Source of the DNA: Lingula anatina
Lineage: Eukaryota > Animalia > Brachiopoda
Direction: 5' to 3'
DNA length: 64,000 nucleotides
Assembly: GCA_051362555.1 (NCBI GenBank)
Contig: CM120640.1
Span: forward strand, 67,372,788-67,436,787
This document shows, piece by piece, positions 45,001-51,000 of the stretch. The notes under the pieces are model-generated. The model was not told the origin of the DNA. It ran no database searches and saw only the letters and a program-made list of their open reading frames with translations. Each line of letters begins with the position of its first letter. Position 1 is the stretch's first letter. The translations under genes were made by a program, and so were the position numbers.

Positions 45001-48000
45001 GTGACTTTGGTAGTCATGGTTACACAGTGTGTGGAGAGGGGAAGGGTAAGATGATTATTTATAGAAAACCTCTGATTTCTGTACTTATAAGCTATTAACC
45101 ATATGAACGCATGAGAAAGTGAATAAAGTTTGTTGCTATAGGTCTCAGGCTGATTAGAGAGAATACCTTCTGTCAGTTACTGTAACATGCATGTTTTTAG
45201 TTATTGACACATGTGTGTTTACTTTTCAACTTTCAAGATAAAATGTGAACAGTATTGGCCAAAGGATACAGAAGCAGAATACTATGGAGATCTTGTAGTA
45301 CAGATGCGCTCAGAATCCACCCTCTCAGATTATACTATCAGAATTCTGGATGTACAGCTGGTAAGTCATTCCCCAAAATCTGATTGTCTTGATGTTTTTT
45401 TCAGTTAATCCAGATTCTTAAGGTATTGTGAGTGAATTGGATTTTTGATCTATCATAAATGTTAAAATATTGTGATGTAATGTCAAAGAAATGTGCACAG
45501 TTCTTAAAACCCAGTAACTATTTTTTTAGAGGTGCCAAACCTATACAGTTAATTTTTCCCTTTAAATGTCATAAAAGTATTGTGTTGCAAATAAAATTTC
45601 AGGGAGAATTCAGCCGGGTGTTAAAACAGTTTCATTTCACCAAGTGGCCAGATCATGGCTGCCCAGAAAGTACCACATTACTTATCAACTTTGTACAAAA
45701 CGTGCGTATGCACATTTCCCACCGGCCTAACAGGGGACCCATACTAGTTCACTGCAGGTATTACCCCTCTGTCCTCACTGCATGATCAGGAGCATGCTGG
45801 AATGGTGGATGATTATAATGATAATAATAGGTTGTAGTTTCAGGAAGCATTCCCTGATGCATTTTAACAACATGCCAGCCTCATTCCAGCTTGTGTTTTT
45901 TGTATCTGCTTGAATCGCATTATTACGTGTGAATTTTTGTCTGTTAGGGCTGGCCTGCTGTAAAATCAAGCATACTGTACTATGGGGCTCCTACAGTATA
46001 TATACAGTGATTGCTGTATACAATACTGCATGATGAGCATAACACAGTTGCTATTATTCCCTGTTTGTGCTATATATGTAAAAAAAACTGCATGCACATG
46101 CATGGTAAATCAAAATACTTTGACATCAGCATGAAGCATCACATAATCATTGAACTGTAGCCTGATCAGTAAACTAGTAGTTGATGGACGACAGCTAGCA
46201 AGGTTTTTATCATGCAACTGTCTCATCATTTTGGTAGTTACACACCTACACACCTTTTCTTTGTTTTTATTTTGGTTTAAGTCCAGCCTTCAATTTGTTA
46301 GTCATGTTTTGCCTTTCATCAACAAGAAAGAATACCAGTTCATAGTATTTGGAGTCCTTTACACATTACACCAATGCTACAGAGAAATTCCTTGTTCTGA
46401 TACATTTGCTTTGAAACAAAGAAAAATTTTGGCACTTAATGACACATAGTGTTTCTGACATGTGCTCTTAGACCATTCACACTTCAATATTTTGTCAGCG
46501 AACTCAATCTCGATCATAGCACTTTGGTTGGCCCCTTACGTGAGTAGTTCTTAATATGTATTATGTATAAGATGATGCTAAATGCTACATTGTGATATAG
46601 CAAGATATGTCACTTTCCTGGTATAAATAATTAAGTTGGAATTTACAATTAAACTTTTACTAAATATAACATTTCCTTATAGGTCGTCTGGCTATGCTAG
46701 CTTGGGCATGATGAGTAGGTATGACTCATTGGCTGGTTTGGTGAAGGTTATTGTTTCTTCGTTTGCTTTGGGTGTTATATATTTAGTTTTTTCTCTTGTT
46801 TGGATTAGTCAGACCTGTTTTTCAAGGAAAGCACCCATATCTTTTCATGTATCTGTAAAACATCCCTCAGTGCTATGTACCCTAATTTACATATAGCATA
46901 TGTACTTTTTAGGGAAGTTACTTTTGCATTTATGGACATATTTTTTTATTTTATAGCAAACTAACAAGAGTGGTTATAATATAATTAGGGGTTCTTCCTG
47001 GTGGCTGGTCAGTTAAATATGCTGGTTTTATAAGGGTAGTCTCACTGAATGAGGGAACAGCCACTCTGCATTGGGTTTTGGACTGGTTTTGAAAGCTGTG
47101 GTTGGGGATTTGGCAAATTAAAAAATATTATTCCTTATGTGTATATGTATTTCCATTTGCTTTTTGGTCTGGTGAATATAAAATTGTACATAATTCAGTT
47201 CTTTTCATGATTTAGTTTTTGTGAGGTAAATTTATGCTATACCACTTACATTGCTTTTAATACTTTCCCTTTATATTTCATAAAATGATTCAATTTTCTG
47301 AGGACAGGGTAAATATATTAAAAGTCAATAAAAATGTCAGATATGATTTTTGTTCAAATGTGACATTAACATTTTAGAGTGCATTTCATTTGAACTTACA
47401 ATTTTATGCTGTCATCCGTGGGGTCGGGTCAAAGTCATTAAGAACTGTTGAGTGCAAATGATACTCATATCTTTTACAAACCACAAGTCATTTACACTAT
47501 TCAAAGAGTTGTTTCTTGGAATTCAAGGTGTAACATTTATAAGTGTTTCCAGGTTTCCTGTTTTTCAGAGAATATTTGGTACTTTGTGCTCCATTAAGGT
47601 GTGTCTATGTATTGAAGAGTTAGTTAATGTAGGCCATGATGTTCCATCAGGCAAATGTGTTATCAGGACAGCCCAGAAATAAAACAGACCTGCTAAGACT
47701 TTCCCTAGGCAATAGCATGGTCATGGATGCATTCCACAAAAGTGACTCTGTTTTTCTAGATGTCCATCTGTCATACTTCACTTCCTGTTATTTTTATCAA
47801 GTCAAGTGCTTCATTTGATTTCAACTGAAGTACAGCAAAGCTCGTCATCAAGTAATTAGATAGTGATTTAAGTTGAATGCTGTAAATCAACTTATTGCAG
47901 CATTCCTGAACATGTAAGATGAAATAAGGATAACTTTAGCATTTCAAAGTAGAATTCATGTAATGATATATATAATGGTATTTTATAATATAATCCACTA

Positions 48001-51000
48001 ATATATATATACCAGCACGTACATCTGAAGCTATTTCAAATCAAGTCTTCTGTTAATGTTTGTGGACAAAAGGCTTTCCTTACTTGACCCTAGTGACCAT
48101 AAAAAAAACCCACAGAGGTGTCTGCCACTGGTCTTTTTACATTAACTGGCACACTTAGGGATTATCAATGCCAATCTGTTCCACCAATGTTTAAGTGGGC
48201 TTCGGTATTAGCAGACTGAAAAGAATGGTTTTTTACGGTAGCTGCAAACACATAGGACAGAGATACTGATGTTACGGAAACTAATTGCCAATTAAGGCTT
48301 GCCTGCTCAATGTCAAGAGGGAATTAACCTCACAGAATTGAATCTTTGCATTAAAGCAGTCCTTTTGGAGGTAATGATTCCATGTGATACCCCATTGTTT
48401 TGTTTAACTAAAAGGAAATGAATGAGACTAACCTTAGAAGTCTTGTCTGATAGCAGACATGTTATTCAGAGTTACTCAGGGCTGAAGTTCATCAGGTTTT
48501 ATGATTGATTTTAATAAACATCTTTGTTGATATTTACAGAACTCTTACAGCAAACATAAAAACACAAATACAAGGTGGTAACTATCTGCAGATTGGATGT
48601 ACATTAACGCCTGGGGACAGTGTACAAGATCTATGAATTAGTTTTAAACTTGCATCAAAGCAGACATATAGCATTTTGGTAGATGTTGACCAAAATTCAT
48701 ATTAAATGTAATTCATAATCAAATTTCATGTTTAACCGTACACATACTTATTTATTTTCAGTTCTCATGGTGAAATTGTATGTCGCCTTCTTCACATCAT
48801 TTATGCTGTTGCACAAAGCATGTTGCTATACTTACTGTATTTACATGATTGTGATGATATACTAACAGGATTGTTTGCATGCCTTCCCCTATAGGGTAAC
48901 AACACTCGCACTGTCCGCCATTTTAACTTCACGGTGTGGCCAGACTTTGGCTGCCCGGACACTACCAGATCCCTGCTTGAGTTTGTGAAAGTAGTGCGTA
49001 CTCACATCAAGCCAGACATCCAGGGACCCATTTGTGTCCACTGCAGGTAAAGTACTATAATGACATATGCTTTAATGAAACATGATTGTCTTTTTAATTT
49101 TTGCTTGTTTCTTTTGAGCCTTATGGAATGAGCATAATGCCTTGCAATTGTATTGGAACCAATCGATACATTTTTTGCAAATTTTTACTTGTTTACAGTG
49201 TTCTTTGATCTCTCTCTCTCTCTCTCTCTCTCTCTCTCTCTCTCTCTCTCTCTCTCTCTCTCTCTCTCTCTCTCTCTCTCTCTCTCTCTCTCTCTCTCTC
49301 TCTCTCTCTCTCTCTCTCTCTCTCAAAAAGGTAATGATATTTTGGATCCATTTGATGTCATTGACACTGACCGAGTATTCTTTAATGATCTTTCATCTAA
49401 GAGTCATCACAAGGAAAGAAATGACAGATATTTAATATATTGTGGGTTGCGTTAAATTAAGACCATTGAAATTGATACGATTCATTTTTTGTATTGCATT
49501 GTTAATAGCATCCTAATGACTGCTCATTTAAAATGCACATAAGCAAAAAAACTTGATTCAGAGAATAATAGAATTAAGTGCGGATCCACGTCAATCCAAA
49601 GGTGTATCAATTACCAATAACTCCTGCTTATTGAAAATCACAGAAGTGTGGAAGTTCACCTGTGATTGAAATCATTGATGCGTTAGGGGACTAGCTTCCT
49701 GTTATTAGAATGGCGTAAACCAGGCACGTGATCTGGCCAGCCGGGACTCTGGAGAAGAATTAACTAGAAAGTAGAGCCAATTTAGTGTCATGAATTATAC
49801 ATTTGATCTTAATAAGAATGGCTGCTCAAGTCTGCAGTTCAAAGTTATCAAAATATTCAATCCAATAAGAGCTGCTGACAGGAATTTGATGAAGAAAATG
49901 GAAATTGTGGCATTTCAACTGTAAAGTGTATTGTCATTTAAGAAATAAAAATATTTTTGTGTCATTTGGTGCTCATAAGGACATTAAGTCTAAATCCAGG
50001 CTTGGCAATGCAGCAGTAGTCACATAAAAAGTTGGTTGTTATAACATTATTTCAGATTTCTGGATAAATTTTTTTGGGTGAGACACTGCTAATATGCTGC
50101 ATGAATTGTTTCTTGCCATTGTGATTATTTTAACCAAGTATCAGACTTCATCCATGCACATAAAACACAGTTGATAGTATTTTATCAAGCTCTTTGTTCA
50201 TATATTATCATGATATTAAGGAATGTTGTACGCCTTAAGATCTGATTAAGTAAATTTAGTTAATGTGAAAGTGCAGTCTATCTTTGCAGCATGCACGCAG
50301 GCATGTGTGTGTGTGCTTTGAAGTGTTTGGGTTTCATAGATGCCAAAAGGTACAGCACTAAATCCATAAGAAGCAATTGCTTTCATGTATTGAAAGTCGA
50401 TTATTGAAATGTGATGCTCAGTTCAGAGGACTTGATATCAATCCATATATTATTTCCCTCTTGCATCACCCATTGATATATCAGTTCTACAAGGCTTGCA
50501 CTCCCAAGGTTAATTCTTGCTCATTCAATATCCGGCCTGTAATTAATAACGTGGCTTTTGAGGTTTATTTGAATATACCTATTATGTCTCGAAAAGCGGT
50601 TATTCCATTGGGTCTTTTTTCTAGCAATCAGACATAATAGACACTTATCCGAGAAACAGGTCAGAAAGTGTTCCGTAAGGGAGCTGAATAAGTGTATTGG
50701 TTCCTGTTTAAACTGATAAATGATCTTCATGATTGGGTTAAATGGATGGAAGATATTGGCTCATAGTAATTCAACAGGGCAGTGATTTTTTTTCTTTTTC
50801 CCCCTCTCTTTTTCATTCTATTTTTAAAGATCTGGAATATCTTGTTATTACCAAGTAATACTGTTTTGGTTATAGTTATTGACAGTTAAAGTGGTCATCC
50901 TGAATATATCTACTAATCTGTGTAAGAGAAATCTTACCATGATTTACGAGTTAAAGACTCATTTTTTGTTCAAATTAAAAAAAGGTTATTTCTTACAGTA

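Follow-up and report, generated by a model that had tools for sequence, protein, structure and literature searches.

The window analysed here, a stretch of 64,000 nucleotides from the lamp shell Lingula anatina, carries the gene for an R3 receptor phosphatase. Its ectodomain comprises 12 fn3 stretches and a membrane-proximal PTP_tm domain (PF18861; found in P0001 and P0004), and its cytoplasmic part has a single PTP domain, seen as one PF00102 stretch that ends about 19 residues short of the C-terminus. An FN3-only ectodomain, one membrane span and one PTP domain are common to this gene and the known R3 receptor PTPs, namely PTPRB, PTPRJ, PTPRH, PTPRO, PTPRQ and PTP10D of the fly (PMC5336234). 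The search for homologues of the PTP domain was dominated by two-domain LAR-type proteins. In the tree the Lingula gene is not an orthologue of PTP10D, falling instead in a separate, second clade; the scores to PTP10D are 331 bits for Lingula and 317 for the clam, versus 446 for a member of the PTP10D-side clade. This second clade differs from the picture in the R3 survey, which recognizes one R3 type in protostomes (PMC5336234) and in whose available text alternative splicing of the PTP domain, molluscs and Lingula are all unmentioned.

The catalytic core of the PTP domain is encoded in part by a tandem pair of alternative exons, termed 2a and 2b, lying between two constitutive exons:

45238..45360, forward strand: constitutive upstream exon D, with the KCEQYWP motif, ending in phase 0 (exon mapping)
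45603..45757, forward strand: alternative exon 2a, class A (His175, WPDH, Asn193), 155 nt, protein as in RefSeq X1/X3
48895..49046, forward strand: alternative exon 2b, class B (Asn175, WPDF, Glu193, Lys196, Cys212), 152 nt, protein as in RefSeq X2
51165..51300, forward strand: constitutive downstream exon F, completing the P-loop and starting the Q-loop (exon mapping)

Both 2a and 2b lie between an AG and a GT, start in phase 0 and have CAC TGC AG as their last bases; the lengths, phases and ends given in the initial annotation, and the four junctions it proposed (45360-45603, 45360-48895, 45757-51165 and 49046-51165), agree with our mapping. The copies are identical at 96 of 155 positions in DNA (62%) and at 50% in protein, and each matches about positions 130-176 of Pfam Y_phosphatase (E-values of 4.9e-11 for 2a and 2.5e-10 for 2b), indicating that their likeness is not due to chance. 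A frame test of all combinations found the PTP domain open with 2a alone or with 2b alone, either exon supplying the catalytic His-Cys as had been claimed. Joining both shifts the frame, again as predicted, with a stop inside 2b, 197 nt upstream of the F/G junction, and skipping both leads to a stop 76 nt upstream of the same junction. In these respects the pair matches tandem mutually exclusive exons: the exons are adjacent and homologous, their phases are equal, and the frame is kept by single inclusion only. As an open frame, exon 2b runs for 51 codons from stop to stop, between the TAG of its own acceptor and a TAA; being shorter than the 60-amino-acid default of the ORF tool it is, as previously remarked, invisible in the ORF track. 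No third copy of the exon was detected within the window.

RefSeq isoforms X1 and X3 carry 2a and X2 carries 2b, and the difference between them is exactly this segment. Model isoforms in RefSeq require transcript support; being computed models, they place the evidence for usage at the model level. Equivalent segments are swapped in the RefSeq proteins of two bivalves, the oyster Saccostrea cucullata (XP_062589564/566 versus 565) and the clam Mercenaria mercenaria (XP_053390692 versus 693, which diverge from the first residue of the exon). At the level of protein models the swap is present in 2 of the 9 multi-member clusters and absent from the other 7, with 11 of the 20 clusters having a single member, and none of 20 metagenome loci, most of them other PTP types, contained a duplicated exon. 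The frame logic, the contrast of X1/X3 with X2 and the equal swap in two bivalves bear out 2a and 2b as alternative exons, and we consider that their mutually exclusive use is very probably real.

Each isoform has an intact WPD acid and HCSAGVGR P-loop, and both are likely to be active phosphotyrosine phosphatases. In structure models of the two clam isoforms the swapped part is alike, consisting of a strand, a loop, a helix and a strand. The A/B assignment is the best of the four possible cross-species pairings (score 610 versus 543-560), and positions 175, 193 and 196 discriminate the two classes in Lingula, oyster and clam, with other orthologues having His175 in 16/16 cases and Asn193 in 15/16. 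Both Asn193 and Phe196, together with helix alpha3, are part of the allosteric network of PTP1B (PMC6039181, PMC4022711). That network also uses helix alpha7, which the Lingula protein may lack.

These observations suggest that tandem, diverged exons encoding the WPD loop, alpha3 and the catalytic Cys, only one of which fits the frame, are probably chosen between by splicing. The result would be two active enzymes, with a predicted difference in turnover and in the dynamics of the loop. Established within this explanation are the layout of the exons with its frame constraint, the RefSeq models for either form, and the swap in the oyster and clam models. On the protein side, the catalytic Trp-Pro-Asp and Cys would stay unchanged between isoforms, and the conserved difference would reside in position 175, before the loop, and in two positions of helix alpha3 (193 and 196), a helix whose coupling to loop closure is known from PTP1B; in Lingula, the His/Phe difference at 182 would add to the effect, with the His form probably the slower. 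On the RNA side, both donors would be weak, and the intron past 2a would pair with a site before exon F, such that 2b is looped out and 2a joined to F; when this pairing does not form 2b would be used, and nonsense-mediated decay would clear the double-inclusion and skipping transcripts. We expect the 2a and 2b isoforms to differ measurably in catalysis or regulation.

The best-surviving alternative is that both exons are used but are near-equivalent in function, the duplicate being tolerated and its single use enforced by frame and decay. This would accord with the equality of the catalytic residues, with the occurrence of only one exon class in the models of several bivalves, with the want of a link between residue 182 and exon class across species, and with the poor conservation of class B within itself (with Lingula 2b, oyster B scores 133 and oyster A 136). 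However, dN/dS between the copies is about 0.35 (dN 0.40 versus dS 1.13, over 46 codons), three columns are linked to class across three species and the pair has been retained in two phyla, all of which render near-equivalence unlikely.

The residue after WPD, His in 2a and Phe in 2b, is the equivalent of PTP1B residue 182, a mapping that the chain ranges bear out, and at this residue His is probably slower than Phe. A further reading, after the proposal in the initial annotation that the switch plausibly changes turnover or selectivity, makes it the selected purpose of the pair: the residue adjoins the general acid, the F182Q change in PTP1B lowers kcat about tenfold (PMC9682893), and the class A and B exons differ here in both Lingula (His/Phe) and clam (Phe/Met). 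An effect on turnover is plausible on these grounds; nevertheless, the difference is not a conserved one, as the oyster has Met in both classes, the residue does not go with exon class, and His also occurs in 2/16 other orthologues where no pair is seen. Since the remaining 14/16 combine Phe182 with an otherwise 2a-like exon, His182 of Lingula 2a is, on the evidence of the alignment, a local change; we accordingly reject it as a conserved switch and consider a selected purpose at 182 quite improbable. The redox role suggested for the extra Cys212 of 2b fares no better: its column has an aliphatic residue or Thr in 59/61 aligned sequences and Cys in 2/61, the bivalve counterparts lack the Cys, making it Lingula-only, and it lies three residues upstream of the nucleophile in a strand in the clam structure models, an i-3 position that would be too distant for a disulfide with the nucleophile. 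Finally, a reading in which one of the two is a pseudo-exon that goes unused, or in which the pair is an artefact of assembly or annotation, might be argued from the pyrimidine-poor 2a acceptor (0.5) and from usage being known from computed RefSeq models, but it is hardly credible given that the copies are too diverged for a haplotype duplication, that neither is disrupted and each matches the RefSeq models exactly in protein, although the ectodomain in the window differs strongly from these, and that an equal swap is annotated in two bivalves.

Returning to the proposed choice by splicing between two differently tuned cores, we examined the splice sites and the introns flanking the pair. The donors of 2a (GTATTA, lacking +4A and +5G) and 2b (GTAAAG, lacking +5G) stand apart from the other 8 of the 10 mapped donors, all of which have +5G. 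The following RNA elements were predicted:

45786..45813, forward strand: candidate selector, the 5' arms of a helix predicted in two parts, from 29 nt past the 2a donor (prediction only)
51045..51095, forward strand: candidate docking site, with 3' arms at 51045-51057 and 51082-51095 and its end 70 nt short of the acceptor of exon F (prediction only)
49077..49084, forward strand: possible weak second selector, an 8-mer pairing with the candidate docking site (not above background alone)

The predicted 14-bp intronic helix joins the donor side of 2a to the acceptor side of exon F with 2b looped out. Its stacking energy of -24.7 kcal/mol ranks first among 100 donor-acceptor window pairs (the runner-up has -19.5) and was matched by 2 of 2000 shuffles, with a second helix extending the pairing to -34.0; over the two whole introns such a strength is ordinary (18 of 40 shuffles), the helix was picked out post hoc, after scanning, and in local folds most of each arm is already paired. 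The 8-mer at 49077-49084 lies about as far from the 2b donor as the 2a arm does from its own and is identical to the core of that arm at 6 of 8 positions; the 2b selector signal lies within background (319 of 508 bins). At the prediction level, then, an intronic complement connects the upstream exon with the other side of the cluster. The same is true of the insect 14-3-3zeta, Mhc and MRP1 genes, which use downstream pairing of a docking site with selectors and where an element past the upstream exon likewise complements a site in the intron that follows the cluster (PMC6071210). Unlike in those genes, the Lingula pairing is predicted from one sequence and the second selector is weak. We tentatively regard the predicted helix as a candidate driver of the 2a/2b choice, a role that it may well have but that falls a little short of being our expectation. 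A search for inverted repeats yielded no convincing arms, and a helix around 2a (about 45470-45497 paired with 46100-46144) was set aside as weak (-20.2; 1 of 20 shuffles). At 3137 nt the 2a-2b intron is too long for steric exclusion, which is ruled out; with every intron GT-AG, a mix of spliceosome types is unlikely.

The exon tree joins 2a of Lingula to oyster A and its 2b to oyster B and the outgroups (81/95), clam B falling on the A side; all four groupings put to AU tests, among them a Lingula-only clade of 2a and 2b (p 0.49), escaped rejection, a result compatible with one ancient origin of the pair and with parallel duplications alike. One possible, though doubtful, reading is that a second protostome R3 lineage retains a switch older than the brachiopod/mollusc split, between a catalytic core of ancestral type and a derived one, a switch which would be set by the intronic RNA helix and would retune closure of the WPD loop via helix alpha3 and not via the catalytic residues. 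If true, this would be a natural loop-swap experiment kept for more than 500 million years.

The mechanism of mutually exclusive exons is familiar, and the isoforms are already in RefSeq, unremarked. Such exons occur within the catalytic domains of kinases, namely Mapk14 (p38, CSBP1/2), Mapk9 and Mapk10 (PMC1431701), in a study whose available text names no such case for a PTP. In contrast to the Mapk exons, those of Lingula belong to a phosphatase and hold both the general-acid loop and the nucleophile. With tandem duplicated exon substitutions the pair shares homologous, same-phase exons and conservative changes near functional sites (PMC9741552, PMC7954323); among such substitutions convergent origins are common (PMC9741552, PMC7954323), and catalytic residues are affected in 9 events of one set (PMC7954323). 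The word "phosphatase" is absent from the main texts of both papers, and no PTP appears in the supplements searched, their gene tables possibly lying outside these. Those sets are drawn from model organisms, whereas the Lingula pair is from a brachiopod and has mollusc counterparts. Our literature search found no description of a receptor phosphatase varied by a swap of its catalytic core, which is what the gene models present here, with one gene likely giving two enzymes of predicted differently tuned activity. The dependence of PTP turnover on the sequence of the WPD loop and alpha3 has been probed by engineered chimeras, some of them insoluble or inactive (PMC9682893); two loop-plus-helix modules that selection has kept within a single, identical scaffold, and in at least three species, offer matched natural pairs for assay.

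Upstream of these exons the PTP domain contains a second duplicated pair, for which no helix stood above the rest:

40076..40166, forward strand: exon 1a (pTyr loop, KNRF), open, absent from the RefSeq isoforms
41091..41181, forward strand: exon 1b (pTyr loop, KNRY), present in 3/3 RefSeq isoforms

Were the ancient-switch reading true, pairs 1 and 2 together could give Lingula four active sites from one gene.

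Both versions of the exon encoding the WPD loop and catalytic cysteine in this R3 receptor PTP gene were found where the initial annotation had placed them, each preceded by AG and followed by GT, and the exon pair is real. The exons concerned, all on the forward strand, are the following:

40076-40166, forward: exon 1a, pTyr-recognition loop, 91 nt
41091-41181, forward: exon 1b, pTyr-recognition loop, 91 nt
45603-45757, forward: exon 2a, WPD loop and catalytic Cys, 155 nt
48895-49046, forward: exon 2b, WPD loop and catalytic Cys, 152 nt
51165-51300, forward: exon F, constitutive downstream exon

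Exons 2a and 2b both start in phase 0 and end in phase 2, with CAC TGC AG as their last bases; they agree in 96 of 155 bases and half of their residues (dN 0.40, dS 1.13 over 46 codons), and no third copy was found in the window. In a script-based assembly of the ten mapped exons of the PTP domain, each of the four ways of taking one exon from pair 1 (1a or 1b) and one from pair 2 (2a or 2b) retained an open frame. Joining 2a to 2b produced a stop within 2b, 197 nt upstream of the junction between F and the next exon, G, while omission of both produced one 76 nt upstream of it. Exon G, too, has a GT donor at its end, so double inclusion and double skipping both fit the 50-nt rule for nonsense-mediated decay, as given in the accessible text of PMC1431701. 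Pair 1 is a second duplicated pair, in which exon 1a is open, has good splice sites and encodes KNRF with His replacing the usual Leu (1a versus 1b: dN 0.59, dS 1.45).

Exon 2b is a 100% match to a Lingula anatina protein, whose cluster contains three RefSeq isoforms: 2a occurs in X1 and X3 and 2b in X2, while exon 1b is present in all three and exon 1a in none. Alternative RefSeq models require transcript support, and these annotated models suggest that both 2a and 2b are used. A 28-residue juxtamembrane segment (~36362-36445) missing from X3 is likely a cassette exon. The protein has the R3 layout (PMC5336234, accessible part), with 12 fn3 stretches, a PTP_tm domain and a single PTP domain. 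Identity to the RefSeq protein is 33-50% in the distal FN3 domains (400-23470; first ~70%), and across 25437-58714 it rises from 85-95% near the membrane to 100% in the PTP domain. Given this low distal identity, the window copy is not the RefSeq copy, but another allele, assembly or paralogue; the ectodomain divergence suggests either an allele with a hypervariable ectodomain or a paralogue whose 3' end has been homogenised. The exon pair is already in RefSeq as unremarked isoforms and is apparently undescribed: the literature covered, mostly without subscription papers, contained no description of it, nor of mutually exclusive exons in any PTP catalytic domain. PTPs likewise had zero matches in the supplement files seen of PMC9741552 and PMC7954323, among which the gene tables may not be included. 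The type of mechanism is familiar, and we infer that both isoforms are expressed and functional.

For phylogenetic placement, a tree was built without the two alternative segments from 58 rows, namely the Lingula row, the protein P0002, two LAR-type outgroups and the 54 best single-domain relatives among 150 representatives. The Lingula gene groups in a clade of 30 rows (support 93/97, not starred), with molluscs, chelicerates and a myriapod as its named members, whereas a separate 16-row clade lies nearer fly PTP10D (446 bits, versus 331 and 317 for two members of the Lingula clade). The Lingula clade is a second protostome R3 clade apart from PTP10D, in contrast to the single protostome type given in the accessible part of PMC5336234. 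Its arthropod members have Trp instead of Tyr after KNR. Five unnamed single-domain relatives (P0221, P0253, P0250, P0161 and P0172) have a WPD loop lacking Pro and Gly, and possibly low or altered activity. The comparison of isoforms covered 20 clusters of the Lingula clade, 11 of them single-member. Among the protein models of the nine multi-member clusters the same segment is swapped in two, those of the oyster Saccostrea cucullata and the clam Mercenaria mercenaria, so that on these models the pair is shared with two bivalves; the Mercenaria isoforms start to differ at the first residue of the Lingula exon and agree again before the His-Cys. The listed members of the Octopus, Potamilus, Limulus, Babylonia, Dreissena, Mytilus and Trichonephila clusters showed no such swap, and an exon 1 swap was seen in none of the nine. 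One member of the Mercenaria cluster, P0282, is a 49-residue Vibrio protein that was apparently clustered in error, and it was excluded from the comparison.

The 2a segment aligns to PTP1B 169-215 with zero net gaps, which sets the residue numbering. Of the four possible pairings of the exons of the three species, the best scores 610, versus 543, 553 and 560, and three columns are diagnostic in it, separating a 2a-like class A (His175, Asn193) from a 2b-like class B (Lys196); the other pairings yield 2, 1 and 0 such columns. Other orthologues have His175 (16/16) and Asn193 (15/16), both absent from all three B exons, and more distant R3 proteins are B-like at these sites. In models of both clam isoforms residue 175 ends the strand preceding the loop, 193 and 196 lie in the helix after it, and 212 in the strand preceding the nucleophile. 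Across most of the swapped segment, pLDDT in ten-residue blocks is 79-95; it is 65 in B's longer loop, and each model as a whole has a mean of 62. Residue 182, where His versus Phe had been proposed to alter turnover or selectivity, is His/Phe in Lingula 2a/2b, Met/Met in oyster A/B and Phe/Met in clam A/B, and Phe in 14 and His in two of 16 other orthologues. In a paper on this residue, His182 enzymes are reportedly slower. The isoforms are probably both active and probably differ in loop dynamics or the alpha3 surface, with residue 182 as a likely added effect in Lingula; the functional proposal is in part retained. In PTP1B, Asn193, Phe196 and helix alpha3 move together with the WPD loop (PMC6039181, PMC4022711), and kcat falls about tenfold with F182Q (PMC9682893), according to the accessible text of these papers. 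The redox role suggested for the extra cysteine of 2b is rejected, since 2 of 61 aligned sequences carry Cys212 and the bivalve B exons lack it.

We give an even chance to an origin of the pair in a single old duplication of exon 2, before the brachiopod-mollusc split. Besides the three diagnostic columns, it is favored by the score of Lingula 2a against oyster A (153, versus 137 against 2b), by the top score of 2b being to an outgroup R3 (186), and by an exon tree in which A is split from the B exons of Lingula and oyster (81/95). However, that tree sets clam B on the side of A, neither scenario is rejected by AU tests (p 0.19-0.49), and the silent sites of 2a and 2b are unsaturated, with silent change in only 10 of 25 identical residues; moreover, convergent exon duplication is common (PMC9741552, accessible part).

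As to the choice of one exon, steric exclusion is ruled out by the 3137-nt intron between 2a and 2b. These two exons have the only donors without +5G among the ten. The strongest perfect helix predicted between the two flanking introns pairs 45786-45799, which begins 29 nt past the 2a donor, with 51082-51095, which ends 70 nt short of the F acceptor, and would loop out 2b, in the same downstream docking layout that is known from insect clusters (PMC6071210, accessible part). Among 100 donor-acceptor window pairs it ranks first; its strength is attained in 2 of 2000 shuffles and in one window bin of 508, probably the helix's own, and a second helix brings the energy to -34.0 kcal/mol. We give slightly less than an even chance to this helix driving exon choice: it came to light after a scan, introns of such length commonly yield one as strong (18/40 shuffles), and in local folds most of each arm is already paired. 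A related 8-mer after 2b, at nearly the same offset, is not above background. Over 13 nt, the WPD codons of 2a (45645-45657) match the complement of a unique site at 49727-49739, in the intron following 2b. This pairing was equalled in 7 of 200 shuffles, run on six exon-intron pairs, and 2b itself pairs less strongly with that site. Finally, a long CT microsatellite (~49209-49322), starting ~160 nt after exon 2b, forms a pyrimidine tract to which splicing repressors could bind.
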